IMG/VR virus record: IMGVR_UViG_3300042368_000845
Reading direction: 5' to 3' (one strand)
Length of the DNA stretch: 20,000 nucleotides
DNA from: an uncultured virus (IMG/VR IMGVR_UViG_3300042368_000845)
Lineage: Duplodnaviria; Heunggongvirae; Uroviricota; Caudoviricetes
The notes under the pieces were generated by a model. The model was not told where the DNA came from and ran no database searches. It was given only the letters and a program-made list of their open reading frames with translations. The position numbers and the translations under genes are program-made. How positions within the stretch are numbered: position 1 is the stretch's first letter; each line of letters starts with the position of its first letter. This document shows positions 6,169 through 19,903 of the stretch, piece after piece.

Positions 6169-6225
6169 ACTATCAACTTCCTCACGTCCTATAACTAACT
6201 ATCAACAAATACTATCAACTTTGGC

Positions 6226-6266
6226 AAAAAAAAGAGGACACTCGCATCAAACGATGCGAATGCCTC
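6226..6266 (-). terminator. Intrinsic terminator overlapping the stop of the wHTH gene
   Basis: Minus strand GAGGCATTCGCATC-GTTT-GATGCGAGTGTCCTC followed by 8 T. Confidence 0.75.
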
Positions 6267-6471
6267 CGTTGCGACCGCGAGTGAAAGTAATCCGTGATCC
6301 GAAATGATCGACAAGAATCTTTCGCATTTCGTTGGTCGTGACACCAAACTGTTTTGAGAGTGAAAGAACCGTAACCTTTTCACCCGAATTGAAACGATTT
6401 TCTGCATCAACGCAAATCGACTTGTACTGATCTGTGTTGAGATTGCCACTAACGACTGTGTTGTTGTTCAT
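6247..6471 (-). CDS. Small winged-helix protein, paralog A
   Basis: VTVLSLSKQFGVTTNEMRKIL...TFTRGRNGGI (Rrf2-like RGxxGG wing); start reset to 6471. Confidence 0.75.
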   Translation of the reverse strand: MNNNTVVSGNLNTDQYKSICVDAENRFNSGEKVTVLSLSKQFGVTTNEMRKILVDHFGSRITFTRGRNGGIRIV

Positions 6472-6477
6472 GCTCAT

Positions 6478-6506
6478 ATTGTACTTCCTTTCTCTCTTGC
6501 TGTCAA
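6478..6506 (-). promoter_or_regulatory. Sigma70-type promoter, leaderless geometry
   Basis: TTGACA-17-TACAAT-ATGAGC-ATG(6471). Confidence 0.85.
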
Positions 6507-6507
6507 T

Positions 6508-6536
6508 GGGGAGGGTAAGACCACCTTACCCTCCCC
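6508..6536. terminator. GC-rich hairpin after the AAA gene, no U-tract
   Basis: GGGGAGGGTAAG-ACCAC-CTTACCCTCCCC. Confidence 0.55.
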
Positions 6537-6545
6537 GACGTTTAC

Positions 6546-7721
6546 TCAGAACGGTGGTTCATTTGGATCGACTGCGGTAGCGGGTGCTGTGTTCTTGTTC
6601 ACAGGAGGATTGACAGTCTCATCAATCTTCGTGTAGAGGGAATAGAACCCGTCCTGCGTGTCACGATCGAATCGTGCGAGTGCCATCTGCACAGACTTTG
6701 GCTTGTCCTTGAACACGGAGTATGCCTTGACGATGTTCAGCAGACGACGAGTAGACACGATCTCATCAACCGCACCCTCATTGAATGACTTGCGGATCAT
6801 CTCTGCCCAAGTCACAAGGTTGTCAGCGAACTGGTGATCGTCAATTCCATACTTGGAGAGTGCCTTGACGATGATCTTCTTCTCAGTACTCTTCGGTGCG
6901 TAGGACTGTTCGTAGGTGTAATCGAAACGATCAAGGAATGCCTCGTTCATCACGTTCGTGCCGATGAATCGACCATCGTCAGAACCCTTGCCCTTGGTGT
7001 TTGCCGTTGCCACCACACAGAAGCCCTTGGCAGGAGTCACCCAAACATTCTGCTTCTTGACATACACACCCTTTCCCTCAAGGACGCTTTGGAGGCACAT
7101 GATCTTCTCCGTGCCAAGGTCAACCTCGTCAAGCAAAAGAACCGCACCACGCTTCATGGCCTCGACAACAGGGCCATCCTGCCACACGGTGCTTCCATTC
7201 ACAAGACGCATACCACCGATCAGATCATCCTCATCGGTCGTTCCGATGATGTTGACGCGGTAGCACTCTCGCTTCAACTTCGCACAAATCTGTTCGATCA
7301 TGGTTGTCTTGCCGTTGCCCGACATACCAGTAAGGTAGATCGTGAAGAAATCCTTGGACGAGAGAAGACGGTGAATGTCCTCGTAGTGACCCCATGCGAC
7401 ATACTCAGGGTTTACGTCGGGGACGAGGGAGGTGCGATCACCCATCGTCATGCCAAGGACTGCTGATGCCATATTGAGCGTTGTCGTGGAAGTTTCAATC
7501 ATTGTGTTTTCCTTTGTTTCAATCATTGTATCAGAAATCTCAGGGATGTGGTAGACACCGTGAGAGATTTTTCGATCTTTTTCAAGACACCACGATGGTG
7601 GATTTGAGAGGCCAATCATGTTCGCCGCACGAATAAGTTCTGCACGGCTGACAGAGGTGGTCTTGATGCCGTTGGTGCGAAGGCTGTCGATAAATTTTTG
7701 TTGTTCCGTGGTGAGGTTCAT
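6546..7721 (-). CDS. CobS/MoxR-like AAA+ ATPase with an N-terminal extra domain
   Basis: Walker A GMSGNGKT, Walker B LLLDEVD, ATANTKG, NEAFLDRF, STRRL; start reset to 7721. Confidence 0.92.
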   Translation of the reverse strand: MNLTTEQQKFIDSLRTNGIKTTSVSRAELIRAANMIGLSNPPSWCLEKDRKISHGVYHIPEISDTMIETKENTMIETSTTTLNMASAVLGMTMGDRTSLVPDVNPEYVAWGHYEDIHRLLSSKDFFTIYLTGMSGNGKTTMIEQICAKLKRECYRVNIIGTTDEDDLIGGMRLVNGSTVWQDGPVVEAMKRGAVLLLDEVDLGTEKIMCLQSVLEGKGVYVKKQNVWVTPAKGFCVVATANTKGKGSDDGRFIGTNVMNEAFLDRFDYTYEQSYAPKSTEKKIIVKALSKYGIDDHQFADNLVTWAEMIRKSFNEGAVDEIVSTRRLLNIVKAYSVFKDKPKSVQMALARFDRDTQDGFYSLYTKIDETVNPPVNKNTAPATAVDPNEPPF

Positions 7722-7727
7722 ACGCAT

Positions 7728-7756
7728 ATTATATCAATGACCATGAAAGAAATCAA
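7728..7756 (-). promoter_or_regulatory. Sigma70-type promoter, leaderless geometry
   Basis: TTGATT-17-TATAAT-ATGCGT-ATG(7721). Confidence 0.85.
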
Positions 7757-7821
7757 TGCACATGGAATGATTTCCAAAAATTTTCATAGATACTTGTATG
7801 ACCAACAAACAAAATGAAAAT

Positions 7822-7860
7822 AAAAATTCACGGCAAGTCAAGAAGACTACCGTGAATTTT
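7822..7860 (-). terminator. Intrinsic terminator after the vWA gene
   Basis: AAAATTCACGG...CCGTGAATTTTT. Confidence 0.7.
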
Positions 7861-7885
7861 ATGAAACCTTATCAGAAGAGAAAGT

Positions 7886-9979
7886 TTACTCGACCGCGAT
7901 CAGGTCGATGAATCGGTTGAGCATGACGCGGGATGATGTACGCTTATCCATCGTCTTGATGAACGCATTCCGAATACCGACGTTCGACTTCTTATCGGAA
8001 AGAATTTCGTCAAGATCATCATCCTCAATCGAAGCATTTCCCTGAATGATGAAGAGTTCGTCATGTCCGTGGCATGACTTGTCTGCAACCGCAAAACCTT
8101 CCTTGTCGTAGGTACTCTTTGCCTTTTCAAGTACTTGATTGTTCTTGAAAAATCGCGTGGTTACGTTGTTCGACATTCCACCACGTCGGCGTGAGTCGAG
8201 GAAGATACCGATGCTGCGGCATCCAGTAATGTCGGAGAATGCCGTATAGAGTGCGTCGGTGGATGATGTACCCTCCATCACCTGATACGTCTTCTTGCCG
8301 ACAATGATGAAAGACTTCATGTAGGCCGATGAGCCACAGATGCTTGAACCAGTTGTTTCCCCGTCAGTAAGGAACACCGTATGAACAATGTCCAAGTTGT
8401 TATCCTGCTTGAACTTGGGGACAATCTTCATGGCGGCGACGACCGCCTCATTGAGTGGGGTTGATGACAACTCCATCTGTGGAGGAATGCTGTAGTTGTA
8501 CTGGCTTCGTCGTGAGTATCCGTTGATCTGCACAAACAGATTTCGCATCATCGTGTTGAAGTCAACACCATTCATCCGTGATGAAAGAATATTCAACAGA
8601 CTGAAGTTGTTGAAACCCATCTTGGAACCCTTCATGTCTGATGGATACTCAAAGTCAGACTTGTTGTTGTCAAGTTCTGCGAAACGAGATGTGAAAGCGT
8701 AAACCTCATACGGAATGTTCAATCGCTTGCAGAACAGAACAATCTGAAAGAGTTGCTTCAGCGTATCCTCAAGGCATACTGCCATGCTGCCTGACCAATC
8801 CATGAAGAAGACAAGACCGTGAGACTTTCCCTTCTTCATCGTCGTTTGACGCATGAAGATATCATCCGTGAAATGGAAGTTCATCATGCGTACCGTGTCA
8901 ATTACGCCTGTCTTGTTCACCGACAAACGGAAACTGTCACGGGCCGCTTTCTTTGTCATGAACTGCTTGCACAGAATGTTCACAGCGGCCTTTGACTTGT
9001 TCGCAAACTCTTGGTAGTCCTTGTTTGCCATGTCATAGGCATCACGATGACGAGTGTCGTAACCGTGATAATAACGCATCACACCCTTGTAGTCAACGAT
9101 AACATTGTTCTTCAACGATGGAATCGTTTGGTAAAAATAATTATCGTATGTGTTGGATGCCATTTTGCGAAGGTGGCTCTCAAGGATCTGCTGTGTCGAG
9201 CATTGATCAGGGAGAATACCCTGATTGCTGTATCCATCAAGGCGATTTTCGCTGTTCTTGTTTTCCGATTCCTCTCCCTTCACAGAGGTGGCATTACCCG
9301 TACCATTGCCAAAACCGACAGCGGTCTTTCCACCCTCTCCATCCTCACGGCTGTCACGCTTCTTGTCCTTGCAGTATTCCCAAATTTTCTTGGTCACGGC
9401 AATGACTTGCTCAAAGGTACGAGCCTGATCAATCTCTTCGATGAATGGCATCTCCTCATCGGAGAACTTGATGAAGTTGTGTCGGTATGTGCCAACCTTG
9501 TAGTGAAGGTTGATTCGGTCGATGAATCCCATCTTGGACACATCCTTACCACGAATCTCGAAGAAATCACGTTCATCAAGATCCTTGTAACCGATGTAGA
9601 AGTCGCGTCGAAGACCTCCGAACTTCTCCTTCATCAACTTTTCGATACGGGCATCCTCAACCACGTTGAGGTATCCCATAGCATGGTTTGCGTGTTCCTC
9701 ACCACCAATTTCCACGGCTGCTGCCATTGGCTTGCCATTCTTGATGGACTCCTCATCCTTCTCCGTATATGGAGTGTAAAGAGCATGACCAACCTCATGC
9801 CCCACGATCATGTCGTAGAGTTCGTTGGACATCTCACCAAGCACGGGAAGCGTGAGAACACGATTGCGAACGTCGAATGACGCTGTGCGAGCCTTGTTGT
9901 CATGGATCACGGTGATATTCTCAGAAGCGAGAAGCCTTGACAGAACGGACTTGGATTGCTTGTTCGTTTGCGTGTGCAT
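7886..9979 (-). CDS. CobT-like protein: N-terminal zincin-like HExxH domain plus C-terminal vWA (MIDAS)
   Basis: HEVGH, NVVEDARIE, DWSGS, STPL, LTDG; partner of the adjacent AAA+; start reset to 9979. Confidence 0.9.
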   Translation of the reverse strand: MHTQTNKQSKSVLSRLLASENITVIHDNKARTASFDVRNRVLTLPVLGEMSNELYDMIVGHEVGHALYTPYTEKDEESIKNGKPMAAAVEIGGEEHANHAMGYLNVVEDARIEKLMKEKFGGLRRDFYIGYKDLDERDFFEIRGKDVSKMGFIDRINLHYKVGTYRHNFIKFSDEEMPFIEEIDQARTFEQVIAVTKKIWEYCKDKKRDSREDGEGGKTAVGFGNGTGNATSVKGEESENKNSENRLDGYSNQGILPDQCSTQQILESHLRKMASNTYDNYFYQTIPSLKNNVIVDYKGVMRYYHGYDTRHRDAYDMANKDYQEFANKSKAAVNILCKQFMTKKAARDSFRLSVNKTGVIDTVRMMNFHFTDDIFMRQTTMKKGKSHGLVFFMDWSGSMAVCLEDTLKQLFQIVLFCKRLNIPYEVYAFTSRFAELDNNKSDFEYPSDMKGSKMGFNNFSLLNILSSRMNGVDFNTMMRNLFVQINGYSRRSQYNYSIPPQMELSSTPLNEAVVAAMKIVPKFKQDNNLDIVHTVFLTDGETTGSSICGSSAYMKSFIIVGKKTYQVMEGTSSTDALYTAFSDITGCRSIGIFLDSRRRGGMSNNVTTRFFKNNQVLEKAKSTYDKEGFAVADKSCHGHDELFIIQGNASIEDDDLDEILSDKKSNVGIRNAFIKTMDKRTSSRVMLNRFIDLIAVE

Positions 9980-9985
9980 GAGGTC

Positions 9986-10014
9986 ATTATACCAAACCAC
10001 CCATGTAAAATCAA
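9986..10014 (-). promoter_or_regulatory. Sigma70-type promoter, leaderless geometry
   Basis: TTGATT-17-TATAAT-GACCTC-ATG(9979). Confidence 0.85.
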
Positions 10015-10051
10015 TGGCATGGAAAAAAATCTGAAAAACTCTTCAAAGGTG

Positions 10052-10080
10052 TTGACTCACGAAGGAAAAGAAACTAAACT
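10052..10080 (+). promoter_or_regulatory. Sigma70-type promoter, leaderless geometry
   Basis: TTGACT-17-TAAACT-ATGCAC-ATG(10087). Confidence 0.8.
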
Positions 10081-10086
10081 ATGCAC

Positions 10087-10311
10087 ATGGACACAAGCAC
10101 CATTCAAACGGCGACGGCCACGGCCTCGACTCACATTATCGCATCCCTTCTTGAGACTCGCCTCAGCAACAATGAGCGTGTTACCCTGTCGGATCTTGCA
10201 TCCGCAGGAAACATGAGCGTGGTTGAGGCTCGCAAGACGCTGATCCAAGTGTTTGGAACTCGCGTTCAGTTCAAGCGAGGCCGAACGGGGGGTATCCTCC
10301 TCGCCAACTAA
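10087..10311 (+). CDS. Small winged-helix protein, paralog B
   Basis: VTLSDLASAGNMSVVEARKTL...QFKRGRTGGI; aligns with 6247-6471. Confidence 0.75.
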   Translation: MDTSTIQTATATASTHIIASLLETRLSNNERVTLSDLASAGNMSVVEARKTLIQVFGTRVQFKRGRTGGILLAN

Positions 10312-10336
10312 TAGCGAGCCTTGAACTCGCCAAATG

Positions 10337-10371
10337 ATCCTAGTGAGCGAAAGTTCACTAGGATATTTCTT
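10337..10371 (+). terminator. Terminator with GAAA loop
   Basis: ATCCTAGTGAGC-GAAA-GTTCACTAGGAT-ATTTCTT. Confidence 0.7.
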
Positions 10372-10398
10372 GACCGCTCAATCCAAAAAGGGTAAAAT
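10370..10398 (+). promoter_or_regulatory. Sigma70-type promoter, leaderless geometry
   Basis: TTGACC-17-TAAAAT-ACGCAC-ATG(10405). Confidence 0.85.
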
Positions 10399-10404
10399 AC
10401 GCAC

Positions 10405-10803
10405 ATGAACTACGAATCCGATGAAACTCGCGTGTACCAACTTGGAAAACTCTTCTATGAGTTTTCGCGCAGCAATGGGTACAAGGTTGATGACGCAAAC
10501 CACGTTATGGAGATGGTCGATCTCATGTTCGATGATTACATGACTGATGACCTAGTTTCATTTTGGGATGCACTTCGGGACAATGCACAGATTGATGCAG
10601 AATTCTGCAAGATGCTCCTTGAGAGCGGACTGATGGACGAGAATGAAATCTTTGGGCTTGACAATGGACTCGACAGGGCCATCTACGATATGCAATGGCC
10701 TGTGGATGAGGATGGGGTTGAGGGTGAGGACTATTGTCCTGACTACATCATCGTGAATGTCGATGACTACGACTTCGATGATGAGGTTGAGGATGATGAA
10801 TGA
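10405..10803 (+). CDS. Very acidic hypothetical protein
   Basis: 132 aa, D/E-rich, own promoter and terminator. Confidence 0.8.
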   Translation: MNYESDETRVYQLGKLFYEFSRSNGYKVDDANHVMEMVDLMFDDYMTDDLVSFWDALRDNAQIDAEFCKMLLESGLMDENEIFGLDNGLDRAIYDMQWPVDEDGVEGEDYCPDYIIVNVDDYDFDDEVEDDE

Positions 10804-10834
10804 AATCAGGGGGCTTACGCCCCCTGATTTTTTT
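10803..10834 (+). terminator. Intrinsic terminator, possibly bidirectional
   Basis: AAATCAGGGGGC-TTAC-GCCCCCTGATTTTTTTT. Confidence 0.85.
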
Positions 10835-10970
10835 ATTGGTTTTTACTATCAACTTTCTGAGAGTAATTTCGCTTTCGATTCACAGACTTCAAAAACAACA
10901 AATACTTCTTGCCGCGTGATGAGTGTGGGATTGGGCCTGCACCCTTACCCTTACGATAATTTCGTGCCAT
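10833..10970 (-). CDS. 45-aa basic peptide, probably late-expressed
   Basis: MARNYRKGKGAGPIPHSSRGKKYLLFLKSVNRKRNYSQKVDSKNQ; AAGGAG SD; CTAAATA at 10996-10990. Confidence 0.65.
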   Translation of the reverse strand: MARNYRKGKGAGPIPHSSRGKKYLLFLKSVNRKRNYSQKVDSKNQ

Positions 10971-10994
10971 AATAAAAACTCCTTGTCTATATTT

Positions 10995-11260
10995 AGAAAC
11001 AGATATCACCGCTGTTTCTTGACCAGTTGCAACAAGTCAAGTCATACGGTGAATCTGCGCCTCCAATCCATGAGCGTATTATTTATTACAATGATCTGTA
11101 GATTGGATCATATAACAGATCAAGGCCAATAGTAAAAGGTGATATCATTCCTTTTATTTTACGATACTATGGGGAAGCAAACCACCATAGTAAAGCCATT
11201 GGGGAATGGGAGGATTACCCTCCCCGCACTAGACCTAATCCCATTTGTTACTCGTCTAGT
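10995..11260. ncRNA. Candidate structured RNA (7 tandem stem-loops)
   Basis: Inverted repeats at 10995-11019, 11018-11041, 11092-11122, 11133-11156, 11165-11192, 11208-11224, 11228-11260; no credible ORF. Confidence 0.45.
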
Positions 11261-11270
11261 CGAGATCGGC

Positions 11271-11516
11271 TCAGTCGCCGCTGTCGATGGTATGTGAAAT
11301 GTAGACTTCGGTGTTGCCATCATCACGCACCTTGAAGCCATCGTAACTGTTCATCTGACCTCGTTGGTGAGTCTGAACATAGTTCTCACCATACGAGTCG
11401 ATCACTTCCTTGGGGTGAGTACCTTCGATGAGGATCGTGTGGTTCTCACGATTGTAGCAGCGACCAAGATTCATGTTTGTGTAGGTGTGCTTGAGGACTT
11501 TGAGTTGCTGTGTCAT
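11271..11516 (-). CDS. Hypothetical protein
   Basis: MTQQLKVL...; start reset to 11516. Confidence 0.75.
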   Translation of the reverse strand: MTQQLKVLKHTYTNMNLGRCYNRENHTILIEGTHPKEVIDSYGENYVQTHQRGQMNSYDGFKVRDDGNTEVYISHTIDSGD

Positions 11517-11522
11517 GCTCAT

Positions 11523-11551
11523 ATTTTACTCCGCTACTGCCTTGCTGTCAA
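11523..11551 (-). promoter_or_regulatory. Sigma70-type promoter, leaderless geometry
   Basis: TTGACA-17-TAAAAT-ATGAGC-ATG(11516). Confidence 0.85.
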
Positions 11552-11774
11552 TCTTCTTTGTCGTGAAGTCTGAGATTTTGGTGACTTGCAGGAATCCTGC
11601 ACCATTTCCTTCGGGGTCTGCATTTGCAATAACCTCGTAGGTACGCTTGCCGTTCTCAACGATCAGCCCCATGTAAGTATCACCATACTTATCAGGATCG
11701 ACAACGATCTTCTTGATCTTGCCGCCAATGAGAGGCTTGAGGTAATTGAAGTAGACTTCTTGACTGTTGCTCAA
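11526..11774 (-). CDS. Hypothetical protein
   Basis: TTG start with GGAG SD; DPEGNGAGFL segment. Confidence 0.75.
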   Translation of the reverse strand: MSNSQEVYFNYLKPLIGGKIKKIVVDPDKYGDTYMGLIVENGKRTYEVIANADPEGNGAGFLQVTKISDFTTKKIDSKAVAE

Positions 11775-11869
11775 TCGTTGTCTCCGAAAATGTTGTGAAT
11801 GAAGTACCGTGCGACCATTACCGTGGCGATCACGGCAACACAGATTGTGACGATGATGCTAAGTTCCAT
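11771..11869 (-). CDS. 32-aa single-TM peptide
   Basis: MELSIIVTICVAVIATVMVARYFIHNIFGDND; TAATG and TTGA overlaps with neighbours. Confidence 0.65.
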   Translation of the reverse strand: MELSIIVTICVAVIATVMVARYFIHNIFGDND

Positions 11870-12102
11870 TAGATGTTCCTGAATGGGTCAAGAATTTTCA
11901 TGGCTTCGGCAACACGAATCAGGTCATGACGACTGACTACAATTTCGTGTTTTTGTTTGTCGGCTGAATAAACATTCAGCGTGACATTGCTTGTGTTGTT
12001 GTCATCCAAACACACAATCAACCGAACGGACTGATCAAGTGTTGGAATGTCAAATGACGATCCCATGAAAGGTTTGTAGTGATTTGATGGATGTGTTTCC
12101 AT
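11869..12102 (-). CDS. Hypothetical protein
   Basis: 77 aa with own promoter. Confidence 0.75.
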   Translation of the reverse strand: METHPSNHYKPFMGSSFDIPTLDQSVRLIVCLDDNNTSNVTLNVYSADKQKHEIVVSRHDLIRVAEAMKILDPFRNI

Positions 12103-12108
12103 GTTTGT

Positions 12109-12137
12109 ATCTTACCAAAGCCCGATTGTACCGTCAA
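12109..12137 (-). promoter_or_regulatory. Sigma70-type promoter, leaderless geometry
   Basis: TTGACG-17-TAAGAT-ACAAAC-ATG(12102). Confidence 0.8.
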
Positions 12138-12144
12138 GTACAAT

Positions 12145-12368
12145 CAGACATCTACCTTGTGTGGTTGATCGTGAATACAGGTAGACCATCTACGATGGCA
12201 AATATTCACTTTCGCACTCACCCATAACCCTATAATCTTAGACAGATATGATGAGTGTATCTGTCTTGCAGCCAAAATGAACACTTTGACGGGTGTATGC
12301 GAAATTACAGAATACGCATCCCTCTGCCTCCGTTGGTGGAGGAACCATGTAATATAGAACTTACATGG
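12145..12368 (-). ncRNA. Candidate ~220-nt structured RNA beginning AUG-UAA
   Basis: Near-consensus promoter 12401-12373, ATGTAA at 12366, six hairpins. Confidence 0.55.
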
Positions 12369-12372
12369 GCGG

Positions 12373-12401
12373 ATTGTATAAGTAGTTGGTTTCCATGTCA
12401 A
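12373..12401 (-). promoter_or_regulatory. Sigma70-type promoter
   Basis: TTGACA-17-TACAAT-CCGCCC-ATGTAA. Confidence 0.85.
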
Positions 12402-12438
12402 GTACCTACAAACCGTTTTTTTGGCGTTCTGAAGGGGC

Positions 12439-12467
12439 TTGACAAGATTTCAAAACCTTGGTAAAAT
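12439..12467 (+). promoter_or_regulatory. Sigma70-type promoter, leadered transcript
   Basis: TTGACA-17-TAAAAT, then AAGGA SD and ATG 12495. Confidence 0.8.
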
Positions 12468-12494
12468 AAACTGTCTGGTATAAGGAAAACTAGG

Positions 12495-12641
12495 ATGAAA
12501 ATTACCATCAAGACATCTACAAGTACAAGTACCCGCAAGGGCCACCACCACCAACGCCCAAAGACATGGGCGAACAAGGATCGTGACCCAATTCGGGATC
12601 GACGTGATTCCAAGGCCGAACTTCGGAGGGCATTCGCATGA
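12495..12641 (+). CDS. 48-aa basic peptide
   Basis: MKITIKTSTSTSTRKGHHHQRPKTWANKDRDPIRDRRDSKAELRRAFA; ATGA overlap with the next gene. Confidence 0.7.
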   Translation: MKITIKTSTSTSTRKGHHHQRPKTWANKDRDPIRDRRDSKAELRRAFA

Positions 12642-12778
12642 CCGAACTTCTTTGGTGTTTCCTCACCTTCATCTTCTTTGTCTGCTTTGTCATGTGTACG
12701 GTCTACCTCAGCGGGATTCGTTCAGATACCGCCAAGATCATTCGTTATCTTGACATCATGAACAGGAAGATGAAATAA
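12638..12778 (+). CDS. 46-aa membrane peptide
   Basis: MTELLWCFLTFIFFVCFVMCTVYLSGIRSD...; coupled on both sides. Confidence 0.7.
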   Translation: MTELLWCFLTFIFFVCFVMCTVYLSGIRSDTAKIIRYLDIMNRKMK

Positions 12779-12990
12779 TGTGCAAGTGCAATGACTGCGG
12801 CGACGAAATTCCACAGGCACGGCTTGATTTTTTGCCTGATACAGAGTATTGTATCAACTGCTCAGACAAGCACACCTTCAAGTATGTGGCACGAATGATC
12901 TACCCACACAAGACGGGTGGGGATCTTTTCGTAGCCAAGTCAAAGGGTGATGCCGAACGACTCAACCGTGAGTATACGAGGGCAAGATGA
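12778..12990 (+). CDS. DksA/TraR-type C4 zinc-finger protein
   Basis: CNDCGDEIPQARLDFLPDTEYCINC. Confidence 0.85.
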   Translation: MCKCNDCGDEIPQARLDFLPDTEYCINCSDKHTFKYVARMIYPHKTGGDLFVAKSKGDAERLNREYTRAR

Positions 12991-13157
12991 ACCAAATGAA
13001 ACGCATACACGAATCCCTGAACGCTATGCTTGACGAACTCGAACCCGATGAACTCAACATGGTTGAGGATTTCATTGTGAACGAGTGTGATGTGGATGAT
13101 ACTGATGAGAATGGAAATTTTCCAAATCTCTTCAGAATGTTCATCACCTACAAGTAA
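12987..13157 (+). CDS. 56-aa acidic protein
   Basis: MNQMKRIHESLNAMLDELEPDELNMVEDFIVNECDVDD...; ATGA overlap. Confidence 0.7.
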   Translation: MNQMKRIHESLNAMLDELEPDELNMVEDFIVNECDVDDTDENGNFPNLFRMFITYK

Positions 13158-13164
13158 ATCTTTG

Positions 13165-13170
13165 TAGAAT
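13165..13170 (+). promoter_or_regulatory. -10 box with leaderless geometry, weak -35
   Basis: TAGAAT-ACCACC-ATG(13177). Confidence 0.6.
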
Positions 13171-13176
13171 ACCACC

Positions 13177-13413
13177 ATGACCCACTCATTCAATTACTTC
13201 GTCGGCAATCTTCCCGCAGAGATTCCTCTTCACGATTTCATTTACATGGTTCGTGATACGGTTGGTGTCAAACCAGTTATTCTCAAAGAGAGTAAAAATG
13301 GGATTGACTTTCGCATCACCGTCGATGATAATTACGTCGAGGGCTGTTTGGACACGATCCGCAAGGACATGGGCCAAGACATTCAATACCGTACTGGTTT
13401 GAGGATCTACTGA
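13177..13413 (+). CDS. Hypothetical protein
   Basis: 78 aa. Confidence 0.75.
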   Translation: MTHSFNYFVGNLPAEIPLHDFIYMVRDTVGVKPVILKESKNGIDFRITVDDNYVEGCLDTIRKDMGQDIQYRTGLRIY

Positions 13414-13790
13414 TGAGTACATCAACCACCAACCCCGTGTTCATCTACCGCAATCTCACCAAAGGCTGTTGGTCGATCAAGGATACCAAGACCAACCGTG
13501 TTATCGGCCATGCGGATTCAATTCGCTTGGTCAACTGTAGGTTCAAGGTGTCTGAGGCAGGACGGCAGCGAGTCATCCGCGAACGCAAAAAGTATGTTCA
13601 TGCGGGTGTGGTTGGTATGCTGACATCTGACTGTTCAACCATTGACTCATGGAGTCCAGTACGGTATAATCCGTACACCACCACAACCTTTGTCGATGTG
13701 AGTGGTAATGCCGTGCATAGTGCCTCTGCCGTGTTCTTCGACGGCAATGGCAAGGTTTTTACAGAAGAACAAAAAAAGGAACAATCATGA
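13413..13790 (+). CDS. Conserved-looking phage protein of unknown function
   Basis: YRNL..CWS, AGRQRVIRERKKYVHA and YNPY motifs. Confidence 0.8.
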   Translation: MSTSTTNPVFIYRNLTKGCWSIKDTKTNRVIGHADSIRLVNCRFKVSEAGRQRVIRERKKYVHAGVVGMLTSDCSTIDSWSPVRYNPYTTTTFVDVSGNAVHSASAVFFDGNGKVFTEEQKKEQS

Positions 13791-14044
13791 ACTACGAACT
13801 CGTTGCAGGAATTTTCTTTGGCGTTGGAATGTGTGCTACCGCATACCTTTTCTATAGCGTCAATCGTGTGCGTAAGATTGACCTGAACTTGGTTACAAAG
13901 ACCAATGACATCGACAAGGAAGCACTTCGGCAAGACATCAACCACATTCGTGAGGATGTGAACCAAATGTACTCTGACATGGATTTGGTATTGTCTCGCA
14001 TTGAGGCACTTGAGACAAAGCCCAAGCCTAAGAAGAAGGCATAA
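13787..14044 (+). CDS. N-terminal TM plus coiled-coil protein
   Basis: Hydrophobic N-terminus; AAGGA SD. Confidence 0.75.
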   Translation: MNYELVAGIFFGVGMCATAYLFYSVNRVRKIDLNLVTKTNDIDKEALRQDINHIREDVNQMYSDMDLVLSRIEALETKPKPKKKA

Positions 14045-14304
14045 TGACTCAGCAATTTCGCATCAGGTCAAAAACTTGCCATAAATTTGATTACCTTTTT
14101 CGGGTTCATACCTATCCAAACGGTAGTCGTGGTGGTACAATATGGGCCTACAACCATGACAGAGAGGATTTCTTTGCTATGTGCCAAGGTACTACTGGAA
14201 GGCAGTACCTTCGTGGTGATTACATGGATATCACCGAACTTCGTAAAGAATGGAAATCTCTCAGGGAAAATGGTTGGCAAGAGATACCAGTTGAGGTAAA
14301 ATAG
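14044..14304 (+). CDS. Hypothetical protein (RxxWxxL family)
   Basis: TAATG coupling; ELRKEWKSLRENGW. Confidence 0.75.
   Translation: MTQQFRIRSKTCHKFDYLFRVHTYPNGSRGGTIWAYNHDREDFFAMCQGTTGRQYLRGDYMDITELRKEWKSLRENGWQEIPVEVK
14274..14302 (+). promoter_or_regulatory. Sigma70-type promoter, leaderless geometry
   Basis: TTGGCA-17-TAAAAT-AGCCAC-ATG(14309). Confidence 0.7.
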
Positions 14305-14308
14305 CCAC

Positions 14309-14557
14309 ATGGGAGTCAAACTACACAGTCTTTTTTCACCACAAGGTGATATCATGATCCTTTTCGCCATCCATTCGGATGGTACTGGATGTGTTACACA
14401 GAACGAAGGTGGTGAAAATAATGCTAATGGTACTGGTTACACCATGCCATTTCACTACAACGTCTCTTACCCAGTATCCCTACTCAGGAATGAGTGGAGA
14501 TATTTACGAAAAAACTGTTGGAAAACTTCAGAGGAAAGGTGTAGAATTACAGCATGA
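14309..14557 (+). CDS. Hypothetical protein (RxxWxxL family)
   Basis: SYPVSLLRNEWRYLRKNCW. Confidence 0.7.
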   Translation: MGVKLHSLFSPQGDIMILFAIHSDGTGCVTQNEGGENNANGTGYTMPFHYNVSYPVSLLRNEWRYLRKNCWKTSEERCRITA

Positions 14558-14805
14558 AGACCTTTACCGCACAATACGTTGCAGACTTTCTCACCCTCCC
14601 AATGGACAAGTTTCAGGAGGAGTGCCGCATCCTGACGGGTGTTGAGGCGACCGACGTTGTTCAAATTGATGAAAGCACATGGTTCAACATCACCTGTGAG
14701 GTTGATGAGGATGAGGTTGACCCCGACAACCATTTCGACCTCGTTGGTCGTGACCTCGCACGACGCTTTCAATGCGAAGTCTATTTGGACGACATTTTCG
14801 AGTAA
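14554..14805 (+). CDS. Acidic hypothetical protein
   Basis: 83 aa, ATGA overlap. Confidence 0.75.
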   Translation: MKTFTAQYVADFLTLPMDKFQEECRILTGVEATDVVQIDESTWFNITCEVDEDEVDPDNHFDLVGRDLARRFQCEVYLDDIFE

Positions 14806-14809
14806 GTGA

Positions 14810-14838
14810 TTGACGGCCACGAACCAAAAAGGTACAAT
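14810..14838 (+). promoter_or_regulatory. Sigma70-type promoter, leaderless geometry
   Basis: TTGACG-17-TACAAT-ACGCAC-ATG(14845). Confidence 0.85.
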
Positions 14839-14844
14839 ACGCAC

Positions 14845-15378
14845 ATGGGCTACTACATCGAAATCACAAATTCATCGTTTCGCATCCCCAAGGCCAATCT
14901 TGACAAGTTTTGGGAACTCGCAACCCACCTGATGACTGATGAAATCATCGTTGAGAACGGTACTGGTGGATCATGGGTGAGTGGCAAGAAGGCGGACGTT
15001 TGGTATGCGTGGGTTGATACCGAAAAGGCTCGCAAGGCCATCCTCAACCGCGACATCGTTGACTTCTTCGCCCAATGGGGTTATAATGTCCTGTTGGGTG
15101 ATAACGACTCTCAGTACGAGGTCGTTGAGATTCGCCATTCAAGCCACTCATCGTACAAGATCGGCAACGAGGAAGTTCTCTTTGCCGTTGTAGCCCCTAC
15201 GATTGAGCCTGAGTCATTCCTTCATGTCAAGGGGGAGATTGGCGAGGAATGGCGTTGGACGTTCTCTGATGGCAACCTACACGCACAGGACGTTGTTGAT
15301 GTGGTCTACCACTTTGCACCATGTGCTGAGTACAATCGAATCACCTACCGAACTCCAAAAACCAAAACTTTGGCTTGA
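14845..15378 (+). CDS. Hypothetical phage protein
   Basis: MGYYIEIT...; start reset to 14845. Confidence 0.8.
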   Translation: MGYYIEITNSSFRIPKANLDKFWELATHLMTDEIIVENGTGGSWVSGKKADVWYAWVDTEKARKAILNRDIVDFFAQWGYNVLLGDNDSQYEVVEIRHSSHSSYKIGNEEVLFAVVAPTIEPESFLHVKGEIGEEWRWTFSDGNLHAQDVVDVVYHFAPCAEYNRITYRTPKTKTLA

Positions 15379-15403
15379 TTTCAACAACCATCAAAGGTAG
15401 AAT
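15375..15403 (+). promoter_or_regulatory. Sigma70-type promoter, leaderless geometry
   Basis: TTGATT-17-TAGAAT-ACACAC-ATG(15410). Confidence 0.85.
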
Positions 15404-15409
15404 ACACAC

Positions 15410-15742
15410 ATGGCAAACAAACTCTTCGTTGACCCACCTTCGGGGTGGAAGTACGGCTTTCCCAAGCAAGCACCATCAAATCTTCGTGAAATGGATTTCC
15501 ACGATATCACCAACTGGTTGGTGGAGAATGGGTATCCGATTGAAGAGGCTGAAGTTTGGTCAAAATCCAAGTTCGGAAGTGTTCCATGTCGATTCATTGA
15601 GATGGACATTCAGGAGGTTGAGGAAAAGCCTCTGTATGAACGATTTCATGCAATGTTCAACGATATGATTGATCGTGACGATCTTTCGGTCGAGGACTAC
15701 CGTACCATGCGTGACGTTGAACAATTCCTGAAGAAAGGTTGA
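15410..15742 (+). CDS. Hypothetical phage protein (DPPSGWKYGFP motif)
   Basis: 110 aa with own promoter. Confidence 0.8.
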   Translation: MANKLFVDPPSGWKYGFPKQAPSNLREMDFHDITNWLVENGYPIEEAEVWSKSKFGSVPCRFIEMDIQEVEEKPLYERFHAMFNDMIDRDDLSVEDYRTMRDVEQFLKKG

Positions 15743-15745
15743 AAA

Positions 15746-16114
15746 ATGAACACCAAGTGCTATACTCTTGTTAGTGAGGCAAACAAAAGCAATCAGGCCT
15801 CCAAGCGTAGTGAGATGCTTTTCCTGATCGAACATGATCAGGATGGAAAGCCGCACAGCGGCACGGTTGTTGAATTTTTCGATGAACACAACGAGATGTG
15901 TGATGACTTCATGATTCGGGACGAGGGACATACCCTTGTGATCTCATCAAAGTTATCATACCCGATTCAGACGATTCGGCGTGTGTGGAATTGCCTCATC
16001 ACGAATAAGCCATTGTACGGGATGAGTTTTACACGAACCGACAAGATGTGTGCGAATGCACAAAATCTTGTGAATGAAATTCAGAGCGAACATGGCTATT
16101 CCGTGTTGACCTGA
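15746..16114 (+). CDS. Hypothetical protein (RxxWxxL family)
   Basis: SYPIQTIRRVWNCL. Confidence 0.75.
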   Translation: MNTKCYTLVSEANKSNQASKRSEMLFLIEHDQDGKPHSGTVVEFFDEHNEMCDDFMIRDEGHTLVISSKLSYPIQTIRRVWNCLITNKPLYGMSFTRTDKMCANAQNLVNEIQSEHGYSVLT

Positions 16115-16134
16115 CGACCAACCAAAGGTAGAAT
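16106..16134 (+). promoter_or_regulatory. Sigma70-type promoter, leaderless geometry
   Basis: TTGACC-17-TAGAAT-ACCCAC-ATG(16141). Confidence 0.85.
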
Positions 16135-16140
16135 ACCCAC

Positions 16141-16554
16141 ATGAGCAACGAGAACACCACCGCTTCCGAAATGCAGCACCCCGAACTCGACATTGTGGAT
16201 CGACTGCTTACCAAGCCTCCGCTACACATCCTTACGAATATGGATCTCGTAAAGGCAGCGGACGAGATCGTTGTTCTTCGTGCAATGCAGACCGCGTATC
16301 AGATTGAGATTCAGAAAATCTTTGAGGAGAACGCAAAACTCAAGGCCGAAGCAAAGGAACTCCACGAAATGGTGGATGATCTTTCGGGGTGGGTTGCAGG
16401 GGTCGAAGCGGACAACGACACTCTTCGCAAGGAGATTGCTCGACTCAAGGAAGAGCGTGATGCGGCACGACGAGATTTCTGCAATGCGTCTTACGACGAT
16501 CCGCATTTGGTCGCACGGGAACGGGAATGGGACTGCTTTGGGAAAATGAAATGA
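16141..16554 (+). CDS. Coiled-coil protein, tandem paralog 1
   Basis: AADEI...ERDAARRDFC...REWDCF. Confidence 0.8.
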   Translation: MSNENTTASEMQHPELDIVDRLLTKPPLHILTNMDLVKAADEIVVLRAMQTAYQIEIQKIFEENAKLKAEAKELHEMVDDLSGWVAGVEADNDTLRKEIARLKEERDAARRDFCNASYDDPHLVAREREWDCFGKMK

Positions 16555-16970
16555 GCAACGAAAACACAAAGTTTCTTCGTGATTTTGCGAATGCGAACAT
16601 CGACTCGTTTGAAGAGTGGCATCTTCATATGCTCCGCAATGCGGCAAATGAGATCGAAAACCTGATCGAAGAACGCAACTCCGCACGATGGGAAGTCTGT
16701 GAGTTGACGAGCAATGGGTCAATCGACTCCGCATCACGGGTGGCAATCGAGCGTGGATGGGATATCGCCAACGAGGATGAGATAATCAACTATTTCTGCG
16801 ATCATTGCGGGGATGCCATTGACTCTCGAAATGTTGTTTTCTATAATGCACTCCCGCAGGACATTGCGAGTGCGAACAAGGGAGAATCGGCAACGACGTG
16901 CCGCAAGTGCTGTGAGATGATCGACGCAAACGCAAACAATCAGGACTTCCGTAGCACGGATATGGGTTGA
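16551..16970 (+). CDS. Coiled-coil paralog 2 with C-terminal CxxC...CxxC
   Basis: Start reset to ATG 16551 (ATGA overlap); AANEI...ERNSARWEVC...RGWDI; CDHC and CRKC. Confidence 0.8.
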   Translation: MSNENTKFLRDFANANIDSFEEWHLHMLRNAANEIENLIEERNSARWEVCELTSNGSIDSASRVAIERGWDIANEDEIINYFCDHCGDAIDSRNVVFYNALPQDIASANKGESATTCRKCCEMIDANANNQDFRSTDMG

Positions 16971-16995
16971 CACCCACGAACCAATTTGGTACAAT
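16967..16995 (+). promoter_or_regulatory. Sigma70-type promoter, leaderless geometry
   Basis: TTGACA-17-TACAAT-ACCACC-ATG(17002). Confidence 0.9.
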
Positions 16996-17001
16996 ACCAC
17001 C

Positions 17002-17307
17002 ATGAGCAACACCAATACCATCTCCGATTCGCTCTCACGCATCAATCTCATCGACAACACCTACAACAAGGGATTCACGATGACGTTTCAGAATCGCATC
17101 ACGGTTTCGATTCGTTGGGGTAGTTGCAACTACTCCGATGGCAAGACCACGGCAGAGTGTGCCGCGTGGAATGCGGATAACCATGCTTGGGTTCATGTCA
17201 TTGGTTTCAACTACTACGACAACGACGTGCTTGGGCATCTCACCTCTGACGATGTGGCAAGGTTCATTTACATGGCATCGACCATGACATTGGGAGTCAA
17301 CGGATGA
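17002..17307 (+). CDS. Hypothetical phage protein
   Basis: 101 aa; KGFTMTFQNRITVSIRWG. Confidence 0.8.
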   Translation: MSNTNTISDSLSRINLIDNTYNKGFTMTFQNRITVSIRWGSCNYSDGKTTAECAAWNADNHAWVHVIGFNYYDNDVLGHLTSDDVARFIYMASTMTLGVNG

Positions 17308-17414
17308 GAGATTTCATTGACAAAACATTTGAGTTCTACACGAATCCACGGTTTCTGCTGTGGATGGTTGTGGCAACTCTCATTCTTCTCAACCTTGTGG
17401 TATACCTAAAATGA
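17304..17414 (+). CDS. 36-aa single-TM peptide
   Basis: MRDFIDKTFEFYTNPRFLLWMVVATLILLNLVVYLK; ATGA overlaps at both ends. Confidence 0.7.
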   Translation: MRDFIDKTFEFYTNPRFLLWMVVATLILLNLVVYLK

Positions 17415-17605
17415 AAAAGAACACAAAAAACACATCAACCAAGTCAAAGACGAACAAATCAATTACAGACAAGATTTGGGGCATTCGTGAAGCCCTCGAC
17501 CACATCATGTTTTTGATTGATGAGGGTAATATCAGTCAAAATGACATCTATTATCGACTTGAGTCTATCCATGAAAAACTGGAAAGGCTTGAGGAATCGC
17601 TGTAA
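17411..17605 (+). CDS. 64-aa helical protein
   Basis: Start reset to ATG 17411. Confidence 0.7.
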   Translation: MKKNTKNTSTKSKTNKSITDKIWGIREALDHIMFLIDEGNISQNDIYYRLESIHEKLERLEESL

Positions 17606-17610
17606 AGTCA

Positions 17611-17639
17611 TTGACCACCACGAACCATTTTGGTACAAT
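17611..17639 (+). promoter_or_regulatory. Sigma70-type promoter, leaderless geometry
   Basis: TTGACC-17-TACAAT-GTACCC-ATG(17646). Confidence 0.85.
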
Positions 17640-17645
17640 GTACCC

Positions 17646-18098
17646 ATGCCAACGACTCAACACAATTCCATGCGTTCCACTCAATACCGTGCGGGTGAGA
17701 TCCCGATGCCGCACCACACGTTTGAGGATTTCGCCATGCCTCTCGTCTATGCGTTGATCGAAACCAATTCGGAATACAACATGAAGTTCGCACGGGTCTA
17801 CACACCGAACCCTTGGCATCCCACCGAAGTTCGTTTCTATGACTGGATTCTCTCCTCCGATGGCACTTGGCGACGGACGATGGGCAGTTCATTTGGCAGT
17901 CTTGAAGCGGCCCGTGCAGACTGGCTTTCCCGCAAGGCGAAGGGACATATCCCGCAGGATGTGATTGCGAATCCGCTCAACGGGGACAAGCGTGTGTGGT
18001 GGGATGAGTTTGCGAACAATTTCTGCTCGCAGGGAACCTACGGATTCCACGAACTCATTCGTGCGTACAAGAACGAATACCCACGGAAAGTCGCTTGA
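17646..18098 (+). CDS. Hypothetical protein
   Basis: MPTTQHNS...; start reset to 17646. Confidence 0.8.
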   Translation: MPTTQHNSMRSTQYRAGEIPMPHHTFEDFAMPLVYALIETNSEYNMKFARVYTPNPWHPTEVRFYDWILSSDGTWRRTMGSSFGSLEAARADWLSRKAKGHIPQDVIANPLNGDKRVWWDEFANNFCSQGTYGFHELIRAYKNEYPRKVA

Positions 18099-18123
18099 CG
18101 TAAACCAACTGGAAAGGTAGAAT
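18095..18123 (+). promoter_or_regulatory. Sigma70-type promoter, leaderless geometry
   Basis: TTGACG-17-TAGAAT-ACCACG-ATG(18130). Confidence 0.85.
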
Positions 18124-18129
18124 ACCACG

Positions 18130-18249
18130 ATGGCACGACGATATCGACCACTCATCGACGGTGATGATCCAAAGAACATCGAATGGATCACAATTATTGG
18201 TGTTCCAGTAGGAATCATTATTGCATTCCTCGTCTGTTGGATCTTCTGA
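18130..18249 (+). CDS. 39-aa tail-anchored membrane peptide
   Basis: MARRYRPLIDGDDPKNIEWITIIGVPVGIIIAFLVCWIF. Confidence 0.7.
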   Translation: MARRYRPLIDGDDPKNIEWITIIGVPVGIIIAFLVCWIF

Positions 18250-18259
18250 CCAAAAAGAC

Positions 18260-18287
18260 TTGACAAAAAAACCAACAAAGGTACAAT
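18260..18287 (+). promoter_or_regulatory. Sigma70-type promoter, leaderless geometry
   Basis: TTGACA-16-TACAAT-ACCACC-ATG(18294). Confidence 0.8.
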
Positions 18288-18293
18288 ACCACC

Positions 18294-18443
18294 ATGAGCA
18301 ACCAATCAAACAACTTCGACCATTTCGACACGCAGATTCAGTCTGATGAACTCATCCCTGATGGGTATGAGGACTACATTCAGGATGGGGATTGGGAGTA
18401 CGACATCTTCATCCATGATGATTGGGATGATGAGGAAGAGTGA
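18294..18443 (+). CDS. 49-aa very acidic, aromatic-rich peptide
   Basis: MSNQSNNFDHFDTQIQSDELIPDGYEDYIQDGDWEYDIFIHDDWDDEEE; no K or R. Confidence 0.75.
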   Translation: MSNQSNNFDHFDTQIQSDELIPDGYEDYIQDGDWEYDIFIHDDWDDEEE

Positions 18444-18467
18444 GTAGAGAGAGAGAGTCTTGGACAA

Positions 18468-18691
18468 GTAAAGAAATCTTTACGAATAGGTAAAGAGTAA
18501 GTCGGCTGGTTTCCCATAGGGAAGATACCGTGGTTGTATACCACCTCGTCGCAGCCTATTCAACCTTGGAAGGGTTATGAATCCCTGTGTTTGCCGAACA
18601 GTAATATCGGCTTCTTGTCAAGGAAAAAGTAAAGAATCATAAAGAAATCTTTGTGAAACTTTATGATTTGCATATTTGAATAAAATATGCA
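18468..18691. other. Non-coding island of palindromes/hairpins and TAAAGA repeats
   Basis: About 8 inverted repeats; TAAAGAAATCTTT at 18469 and 18640. Confidence 0.5.
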
Positions 18692-18732
18692 CCTACTGCC
18701 ATAATGACAGGTGTGGTCAGAATGACGGTATA

Positions 18733-18777
18733 GGGGTCAGAGTGGGGCAAAGTGGGGGAAAGTGTAGAGGGGTGTTG
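18733..18777 (+). repeat. 10-bp periodic GTG(GGG) direct repeats / four G-tracts
   Basis: GTG at 18742, 18752, 18762, 18772. Confidence 0.6.
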
Positions 18778-18815
18778 GCATAAACTTCCCACCCGCAGAC
18801 ACACTCAAATAATTT

Positions 18816-19061
18816 TTAGAGGTAGCGTAGATCCTCTATAAACCGTTTTGGTATCTTTTCCACGGTTGAGCAGCCCTCCGAATGGAACGCCCGTATGAGG
18901 CTTATATGCGATTCAGAGACAAATGCCAAATAACCAACAGATTTTACCGTTGGGCATGGCTTCGCAGCCTCCTCAAGCATTTCATCAAGGTCATTCCAAC
19001 CAACCTGACCAACCTCTTCAGCGTCTACCCAAATGACTTCGACAATCGGATATTCAGGCAT
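18816..19061 (-). CDS. 81-aa hypothetical phage protein
   Basis: MPEYPIVEVIWVDA...GW...VGYL; GAGGGAG SD; start reset to 19061. Confidence 0.75.
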   Translation of the reverse strand: MPEYPIVEVIWVDAEEVGQVGWNDLDEMLEEAAKPCPTVKSVGYLAFVSESHISLIRAFHSEGCSTVEKIPKRFIEDLRYL

Positions 19062-19082
19062 AGAAATCTCCCTCTTTATGTA

Positions 19083-19111
19083 TTGACAAGAGGAAAAAAG
19101 AAAGGTAGAAT
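19083..19111 (+). promoter_or_regulatory. Sigma70-type promoter, leaderless geometry
   Basis: TTGACA-17-TAGAAT-ACCACC-ATG(19118). Confidence 0.9.
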
Positions 19112-19117
19112 ACCACC

Positions 19118-19372
19118 ATGAGTCAACTACGACAACTTCTGAAGTCAGGCAAGACGGTCTTCGTGCGGTTTGAGAAGGCGGATGGTTCAATCCGTCACAT
19201 GATCTGCACTCAAAACTTTCACATGATTCCGAAAGAGAATCATCCTGCAAAGAATCCCATGCAGTACGACAAGGCACAGATTCGGGTTTGGGATGTCGCC
19301 GCAAAGGAGTGGCGATCCATGCGAGAGGAACGAATTCAAGAATTTTCAGAATACACCGCACAGGTGGCTTGA
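19118..19372 (+). CDS. WYL_2 / Sm-like SH3 beta-barrel protein
   Basis: VRFEKADGSIRHMICT...VWDVAAKEWRSMR. Confidence 0.85.
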   Translation: MSQLRQLLKSGKTVFVRFEKADGSIRHMICTQNFHMIPKENHPAKNPMQYDKAQIRVWDVAAKEWRSMREERIQEFSEYTAQVA

Positions 19373-19844: not shown

Positions 19845-19874
19845 GGCAGTCTCCTTGGTTCGGGGTGAGACGCC

Positions 19875-19903
19875 ATTGTACCAAAAAGGTCACTCAGGGT
19901 CAA
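19875..19903 (-). promoter_or_regulatory. Sigma70-type promoter, leadered transcript
   Basis: TTGACC-17-TACAAT, 30 nt before ATG 19844. Confidence 0.8.

Follow-up and report, generated by a model that had tools for sequence, protein, structure and literature searches.

Why do so many accessory genes of one phage each carry a promoter of their own, placed at one and the same distance from the start codon? The question is raised by an uncultured virus (IMG/VR record IMGVR_UViG_3300042368_000845; 76,280 bases), whose last 20 kb constitute the stretch analysed here (hereafter the window). Between positions 6000 and 20000 of the window, 18 of the 20 promoter-proximal protein genes begin with an ATG lying exactly 6 nucleotides (nt) downstream of the -10 box of a sigma-70-type promoter, a layout that suggests the synthesis of leaderless mRNAs. 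To judge from its gene content, the contig is a fragment of a T4-like phage. Indeed, T4-type genes for DNA polymerase B, a RecA-like recombinase (RecA/UvsX) and a DnaB-like helicase lie upstream of the window, together with those for ThyX, a B12-dependent ribonucleotide reductase and dUTPase; gp32, UvsY and the late coactivator were found in a relative (G001), the best CobS matches are pelagiphages and cyanophages, and TAAATA-type late promoter motifs are present in the contig. At position 6000 the G+C content (GC) jumps from about 31% to 44-52%, and a single ATAAATA late word was found across the 14 kb of the accessory region.

A preliminary description of this DNA had listed 18 such ATGs, and all 18 were found where it had placed them, six on the minus strand (6471, 7721, 9979, 11516, 12102 and 12366) and 12 on the plus strand. 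The arrangement TTGxxx-N17-TAxxxT-N6-ATG occurs at 16 of them, the spacer is N16 at 18294, a -10 box only is present at 13177, and the gap between -10 box and ATG is 6 nt, without a Shine-Dalgarno (SD) site, at the listed sites. The list had overlooked the site at 14554 (TTGGAA-N18-TAGAAT-N6-ATG), and it had taken for a gene the site at 12366, where ATG is followed at once by TAA and no open reading frame (ORF) exists; after these corrections there are 19 sites, 18 of which head ORFs. The promoters had also been described as private and early, and as serving even large AAA+ and vWA genes. There is one promoter per gene, but the motif is of the ordinary sigma-70 (host) type and not phage-specific. 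Nor is the layout confined to early genes, since an equivalent spacing is seen at some late TAAATA promoters; an early timing of the cassette genes is suggested by their sigma-70-type promoters and by the near-absence of ATAAATA words. The AAA+ gene is indeed CobS-like, whereas Pfam gave no confirmation of a vWA domain, and the 697-amino-acid (aa) gene matches PHROG 459; most other proteins of the cassette region gave no Pfam or PHROG family. The sites, adjoining hairpins and counter-examples are as follows (the number between two boxes is the spacer length, N6 the gap):

6247..6506, minus strand: TTGACA-17-TACAAT, N6, ATG 6471; 74-aa protein, paralog of the one at 10087
6505-6545: strong hairpin abutting the -35 box of the ATG 6471 promoter
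6546..7756, minus strand: TTGATT-17-TATAAT, N6, ATG 7721; CobS-like AAA+ ATPase, 391 aa (AAA_5, PHROG 249)
About 7823-7860: strong hairpin after the 697-aa gene
7886..10014, minus strand: TTGATT-17-TATAAT, N6, ATG 9979; 697-aa protein (PHROG 459 'peptidase')
10052..10311, plus strand: TTGACT-17-TAAACT, N6, ATG 10087; 74-aa protein with weak winged helix-turn-helix hints
10337-10364: hairpin shortly 5' of the -35 box of the ATG 10405 promoter
10370..10803, plus strand: TTGACC-17-TAAAAT, N6, ATG 10405; 132-aa acidic ORF
10802-10831: terminator-like hairpin downstream of the 132-aa acidic ORF
11271..11551, minus strand: TTGACA-17-TAAAAT, N6, ATG 11516; 81-aa ORF
11869..12137, minus strand: TTGACG-17-TAAGAT, N6, ATG 12102; 77-aa ORF
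12361..12401, minus strand: TTGACA-17-TACAAT, N6, ATG-TAA (12366); start-stop, no protein; predicted 5' hairpin
12439..12641, plus strand: counter-example, same promoter type, ATG 27 nt past the -10 box, SD-like site
13165..13413, plus strand: -10 box only (TAGAAT), N6, ATG 13177; 78-aa ORF
14274..14557, plus strand: TTGGCA-17-TAAAAT, N6, ATG 14309; 82-aa ORF
14518..14805, plus strand: TTGGAA-18-TAGAAT, N6, ATG 14554; 83-aa ORF; ATG overlaps the upstream stop (ATGA), where coupling would be an alternative
14810..15378, plus strand: TTGACG-17-TACAAT, N6, ATG 14845; 177-aa ORF (PHROG 38862)
15375..15742, plus strand: TTGATT-17-TAGAAT, N6, ATG 15410; 110-aa ORF; upstream TGA inside the -35 box
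16106..16554, plus strand: TTGACC-17-TAGAAT, N6, ATG 16141; 137-aa ORF
16967..17307, plus strand: TTGACA-17-TACAAT, N6, ATG 17002; 101-aa ORF; upstream TGA inside the -35 box
17611..18098, plus strand: TTGACC-17-TACAAT, N6, ATG 17646; 150-aa ORF; longer in-frame upstream starts exist
18095..18249, plus strand: TTGACG-17-TAGAAT, N6, ATG 18130; 39-aa ORF; upstream TGA inside the -35 box
18260..18443, plus strand: TTGACA-16-TACAAT, N6, ATG 18294; 49-aa acidic ORF
19083..19372, plus strand: TTGACA-17-TAGAAT, N6, ATG 19118; 84-aa WYL_2 protein
19602..19903, minus strand: counter-example, same promoter type, ATG 30 nt past the -10 box, SD-like site; 80-aa ORF

When promoter-like sites were defined by a score of at least 9/12 against TTGACA/TATAAT, 18 of the 27 found in positions 6000-20000 had an ATG exactly 6 nt past the -10 box (binomial p 3e-23), the other distances from 0 to 199 having a mean of 0.64 and a maximum of 4; with the looser pattern TTG-N16..18-TA..T, an ATG was found at distance 6 in 18 of 43 sites and at 5 or 7 in none. 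Besides the two leadered counter-examples, the first of which opens an operon whose genes, one of them for a DksA/TraR zinc finger, are leadered or coupled, a promoter at 19369-19398 heads no ORF. Counting all of the roughly 31 genes of the region, 18 have the leaderless layout and 13 neighbouring ones are leadered or coupled. The -35 box contains the stop of the upstream gene in 3/19 cassettes (15410, 17002 and 18130), and in several further ones the upstream stop falls within or beside the promoter; few terminators are found in the plus-strand cluster. The gap sequences vary at fixed length (mean column identity 60%), and spacer words recur between cassettes. Beyond the window, four similar sites (genome positions 29231, 29691, 31662 and 39406) precede, in the core region, the dUTPase gene, the region of a 135-aa ORF, a SpoU gene and a 75-aa ORF.

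The sigma-70 -10 box normally spans -12 to -7, and transcription starts follow a pyrimidine/purine rule. With +1 placed on the A of the ATG, the -10 boxes do span -12 to -7, and position -1 is C in 17, T in one and G in one of the 19 sites, i.e., a pyrimidine in 18/19. An in-frame stop opens the -10 box in 11/19 sites. No upstream in-frame start at all exists in 11/18 ORFs; among the seven that have one, the extra start is in four cases an ATG that immediately follows the -10 box (6471, 7721, 10087 and 11516). The N-termini of CobS homologs agree from MNLT on, the extensions given in databases being variable and reading through the -10 box. The layout is that of a leaderless mRNA gene, with 6-8 nt between -10 box and start codon and no room for an SD, and TANNNT at such a distance is regarded as a leaderless signature in PMC3160421 and PMC6028130. 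The -1 pyrimidine and the stops opening the -10 boxes make leaderless mRNAs likely. The idea, put forward in the preliminary description, that most accessory genes are expressed in this way finds good indirect support for the promoter-proximal ones, in the geometry, the -1 pyrimidine, the in-frame stops and the conservation in the clade described below, while operon-internal genes use SD sites or coupling.

The four genes with an ATG-nnn-ATG have their second ATG at 6477, 7727, 10081 and 11522, with an SD-like run 5' of 6477 and 11522; this second ATG, after the -10 box, could serve read-through transcripts. Purine runs (AAGG/GGAG) stand directly 5' of the -10 box at several sites. A GG ahead of the -10 box is also carried by non-leaderless promoters (12467, 19398 and 19875), so that it is part of the promoter; the anti-SD energy over -20..-4, which responds to this GG, was dropped as a discriminator. 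In one freshwater metatranscriptome run, 0.11 of the sampled words were present; the 15 shallow contigs obtained show neither starts nor strand and may derive from DNA.

A histogram of -10-to-ATG distances in this phage and its relatives had been proposed as a check, and the peak at 6 was found in both. The set of relatives comprised 78 cobS loci (80 minus two loci cut at an edge and one identical copy, with L022 added), in which 178 ATGs lie at distance 6, 40 at 7 and 3-19 at each distance elsewhere; distance 0 is mildly raised (19 vs about 8). In a second set of 80 mostly more distant loci, most of the peak is due to L007 and two identical copies. The early peak is absent from two cultured controls, in which the same scan gave 1/29 at distance 6 in Syn9 (145 of 177 kb; eight at 22-25) and 1/41 in HTVC008M (112 of 147 kb; spread over 6-12). 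Across IMG/VR, motif stretches with a 6-nt gap number about 850 (estimated from 10/64 parts), those with a 5-nt gap about 140 (54/64 parts) and those with a 9-nt gap 76. Phages with a CobS of 45-62% identity again have the fixed spacing, their gap sequences being unrelated. A quick single-gene tree was built from 84 CobS rows (141 distinct sequences, thinned at 90%) and rooted at its midpoint. In this tree, all 25 rows with a leaderless cobS fall, with the window, inside one clade of 50 rows (SH-aLRT 97), whereas the 34 rows outside it include none leaderless and 16 leadered. Locus-wide, promoter-like sites at 6-7 are 186/629 inside the clade vs 17/530 outside, counts that are not independent because kin share traits; the median cobS GC is 56% inside vs 43% outside. 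Orthologs of the peptidase gene are leaderless-spaced in 37/91 cases, and the leaderless state is not fixed per gene.

Which host would read such messages? Among the proteins encoded by the contig are a PEP-CTERM-like one and one with a GC-type-dockerin-like repeat, both below curated cut-offs, as well as NeuB; cohesin/dockerin modules and sialic acids are reported for freshwater Phycisphaerae in PMC6461901. Dockerin-like motifs also occur in three clade members (G001, L115 and L117). A scan for the PEP-CTERM tail retrieved 127 metagenome stretches from 8/64 parts, and the 124 loci analysed (L208-L331) appear as bacterial in the sample taken, purH, dimeric glyS, accC, aroA, FlgI and FlgK being among 55 proteins; 11 dockerin-like motifs were found in 7/124 of them, whereas 400 kb of control genomes had none. 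In the 107 tail-bearing loci with GC of at least 56%, where the -10 box was the sole criterion for a site, the TANNNT-to-ATG distance is 6 nt in 16/226 genes, 7 nt in five and 8 nt in seven, against a background mean of 1; after the collapse of homologs the distance-6 genes are 13/168, and controls are flat (7/146 in G006, 3/130 in G045). The 17 tail-bearing loci of lower GC, excluded from this count, showed no peak. The TANNNT-N6-ATG peak of the tail-bearing contigs is without an obvious -35 consensus. These high-GC contigs probably belong to Phycisphaerales, and the host of the phage is probably a freshwater Phycisphaerales planctomycete, as the sub-cutoff family matches suggest. The suggestion of a leaderless-rich host, made at the outset, has consequently gained ground, since bacterial contigs bearing the PEP-CTERM tail of the phage show the same six-base peak.

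Other candidates did not hold. The cobS-like gene occurs on five genome contigs of mixed taxa; a metagenome-assembled genome with an in-clade cobS, tried as host, has no distance-6 peak (7/146 ORFs, flat) and no DUF1559, and is probably mis-binned. The strict pattern in 5/41 genomes of its class is an uninformative count, as is the result of a dockerin search in another phylum (0/31). Cluster-member names, an atlas search and plasmid searches yielded no host, and an actinobacterial one found no support, WhiB being found in 0/5 related phage records.

On these grounds, we propose that, at the 18 accessory genes that have their own sigma-70-type promoter six bases before the ATG, the host RNA polymerase would start on the A of the AUG, and that ribosomes would initiate at the 5' end of the mRNA, where ribosome loading on leaderless messages is placed by a review (PMC9031893). 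The host would translate leaderless mRNA routinely, hence its use by the phage, which would push a host habit to the extreme: the leaderless layout is found in 18/20 of its promoter-proximal genes vs roughly 8-14% of all sampled genes of the putative host. This excess is likely due to a selection for minimal cassettes, the 41-nt promoter-plus-ATG unit representing the smallest self-sufficient expression cassette, which fits on an upstream stop, while genes deeper in operons would rely on SD or stop-start coupling. Taken as a whole, from leaderless cassettes to a leaderless-translating Phycisphaerales host, this explanation appears to us probable.

Several observations weigh against it. Nine rows of the clade have a leadered cobS (15 more are unclassified or cut), at least two leaderless-spaced peptidase loci sit outside the clade, and for three small genes few orthologs have the leaderless layout (1/8, 1/7 and 1/12). 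The 5' coding ends are A/C-rich (A+C 0.70 vs 0.50 in gene bodies) and weakly folded, but a comparison with the 13 neighbours that are leadered or internal shows no significant difference (p 0.07 and 0.62), and this bias was dropped as a leaderless diagnostic because leadered neighbours show the same. As for the host, the atlas neighbours of the PEP-CTERM-like protein form a mostly-Planctomycetota cluster and a larger, mostly-Pseudomonadota one; the planctomycete assignment draws, besides the two sub-cutoff matches, on one atlas row, with the phylum known for 17/54 members, and on the tail type as a putative marker of Phycisphaerales; the taxonomy of the tail-bearing contigs is indirect, and their sites were defined by the -10 box only. 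Moreover, profile searches of five related phage records gave 0/5 for NF041540 and 0/5 for P0155, and no PEP tail was found in 157 cobS loci, so that the host may differ across the clade. Finally, transcript start and leaderless initiation are predictions from the DNA sequence.

The late promoters deserve separate consideration. In T4 late promoters, a distance of 5 from the ATAAATA word to the ATG is a geometry equivalent to the leaderless sigma-70 spacing. Such a distance was found for 3/37 ATAAATA words in this contig, 11/47 in G001 and 2/72 in G003, vs 0/28 in Syn9; most late-promoter genes of the contig are leadered (12-30 nt), many with SD-like sites. In the cultured SAR11 phage HTVC008M (NC_020484.1; L183, L185 and L187), 7/30 ATAAATA words lie 5 nt from an ATG, and the late mRNAs from these seven promoters are predicted to be leaderless.

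Different explanations of the same layout, not all mutually exclusive, have to be compared with the one proposed. The shortness and commonness of TAxxxT might suggest that the sites arose by chance or merely reflect A/T-rich intergenic DNA, a reading that the binomial p, the zero sites at distances 5 or 7 and the counts at distance 6 in Syn9 and HTVC008M render scarcely credible. It is rather unlikely that the genes are instead translated from read-through polycistronic RNA by means of weak purine tracts, a second ATG or coupling, the spacing being a relic of copied cassettes. The few terminators of the plus-strand cluster, the AAGG/GGAG runs, the four ATG-nnn-ATG genes, the stop overlap at 14554 and the common spacer words, which suggest cassette copying, would fit such a reading; it is at odds with a gap whose length is fixed while its sequences share a column identity of 60% only, and which recurs, with unrelated sequences, at large CobS divergence, as well as with the divergent first genes 9979 and 10087, which have no upstream transcript, and with the consequence that a transcript beginning at +1 would leave the first gene without a usable start. 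Read-through with weak SD or coupling may operate in addition to leaderless initiation.

The preliminary description had also considered that leaderless mRNAs might be a way to continue translation during an inhibition of canonical SD initiation. That the phage itself blocks or modifies SD-dependent initiation of the host, its leaderless early mRNAs still being read, we regard as distinctly improbable. The leaderless share of the phage, far above that of the putative host, speaks for it, as do the change in initiation factors accompanying leaderless middle/late mRNAs of phiYS40 (IF2 up, IF3 down, according to the main text of PMC3594737), the leaderless-spaced SpoU-family RNA methyltransferase of the contig and the probable absence of over half of the genome from the record. 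Yet the SD-led neighbours, two of them right behind the same promoter type, and the mostly leadered late genes would have to be spared, so that this idea finds little support; in addition, a scan of 105 contig proteins detected neither an initiation factor nor a ribosomal protein nor a toxin-like nuclease family, and the putative host already has the layout. We attach equally little credence to a combination in which unrecognised leaderless-rich Phycisphaerales and a phage product (such as the leaderless-spaced SpoU or an early protein of unassigned function) tilting ribosomes to 5'-AUG initiation would together have let a large T4-like phage clade turn nearly all of its first-in-operon early genes leaderless.

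Some further features of the contig are worth recording. The paralogous 74-aa proteins (6247-6471, minus; 10087-10311, plus; 42% over 48 aa), both with weak helix-turn-helix hints, flank the cobS-peptidase pair. At 19369-19480 (plus) a strong promoter is followed by a stable hairpin (z -2.9) and no ORF, and the short word CTATCAACT or its complement recurs at 19430-19990 and 6172-6220, both edges of the high-GC region. A Pistol-ribozyme-like RNA was detected at 11202-11265 (minus) with 34.3 bits vs a gathering score of 34.5 (E 0.005, whole-window scan); it shows, by eye, complementary pseudoknot loop segments and begins about 6 nt past the stop of the 11516 ORF. At 12144-12401 (minus), a strong promoter sets the predicted +1 on the AUG-UAA of a small hairpin, and the approximately 220 nt that follow the AUG-UAA at 12366 hold no clear ORF and no Rfam match and fold ordinarily (z -1.1 and -1.5); the transcript might be a non-coding RNA or a lost gene. 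Outside the window, the family B DNA polymerase is split into two genes about 8 kb apart (L002:10155-11636 and L003:1596-2720), and the SpoU-family RNA methyltransferase gene (L002:11662-12195; genome 31662), with its leaderless-spaced promoter, lies near a tRNA-Leu(TAA).

The data give a first hint that the trait goes with the lineage of the host, planctomycetes being a putative leaderless-using group. Should this hold, the distance from -10 box to ATG would allow the hosts of uncultured phages to be predicted cheaply, and start sites could be corrected where ORF callers extend cassette genes into the promoter; the late-promoter geometry of HTVC008M opens the idea to testing with a phage and host already in culture. 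A literature search covering few subscription papers retrieved no mention of T4-like phages whose early genes are systematically leaderless, nor of leaderless-rich Phycisphaerae.

Among known systems, the PeSL cassettes of RB49, phi1, PST and nt-1 (main texts of PMC2839356 and PMC4122927, in which the word 'leaderless' has 0 occurrences) place near-consensus sigma-70 promoters before single small unknown genes of a variable region. The cassettes described here likewise have a sigma-70 consensus promoter before single accessory genes; PeSLs, however, end in SD plus start codon, for which there is no room here, and carry stem-loops, promoter-adjacent hairpins being found at 2/19 of our sites (6471 and 10405), part of which were folded. 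Recombination and mini-circle formation are a further trait of PeSLs; the one shallow metatranscriptome run, an uninformative sample in this respect, showed no joints between cassettes. The TANNNT-led leaderless genes of Actinobacteria and Deinococcus-Thermus (main texts of PMC3160421, PMC6028130 and PMC12340547, the first two with 0 occurrences of Planctomycetes) have the -10 box 6-8 nt from the start, as here, but this phage differs from them in its full -35 box and near-consensus -10 box, and in the absence of WhiB from 5/5 related phage records. The closest parallel is offered by the Thermus phages phiYS40 and Lalka27a, whose mRNAs likewise begin on the initiator codon phage-wide (main texts of PMC3594737 and bioRxiv 10.64898/2026.04.20.719267) and whose host phylum is leaderless-rich. 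Their starts are known from experimental mapping, which in phiYS40 concerns middle/late genes for the most part, whereas those reported here are predicted from sequence; the present phage, moreover, is T4-like, uses mainly sigma-70 (-35/-10) promoters and has a probably planctomycete host. Leaderless mRNA and leaderless-rich phages were thus already known, and to these our analysis adds a T4-like clade with a systematic use of the leaderless layout.

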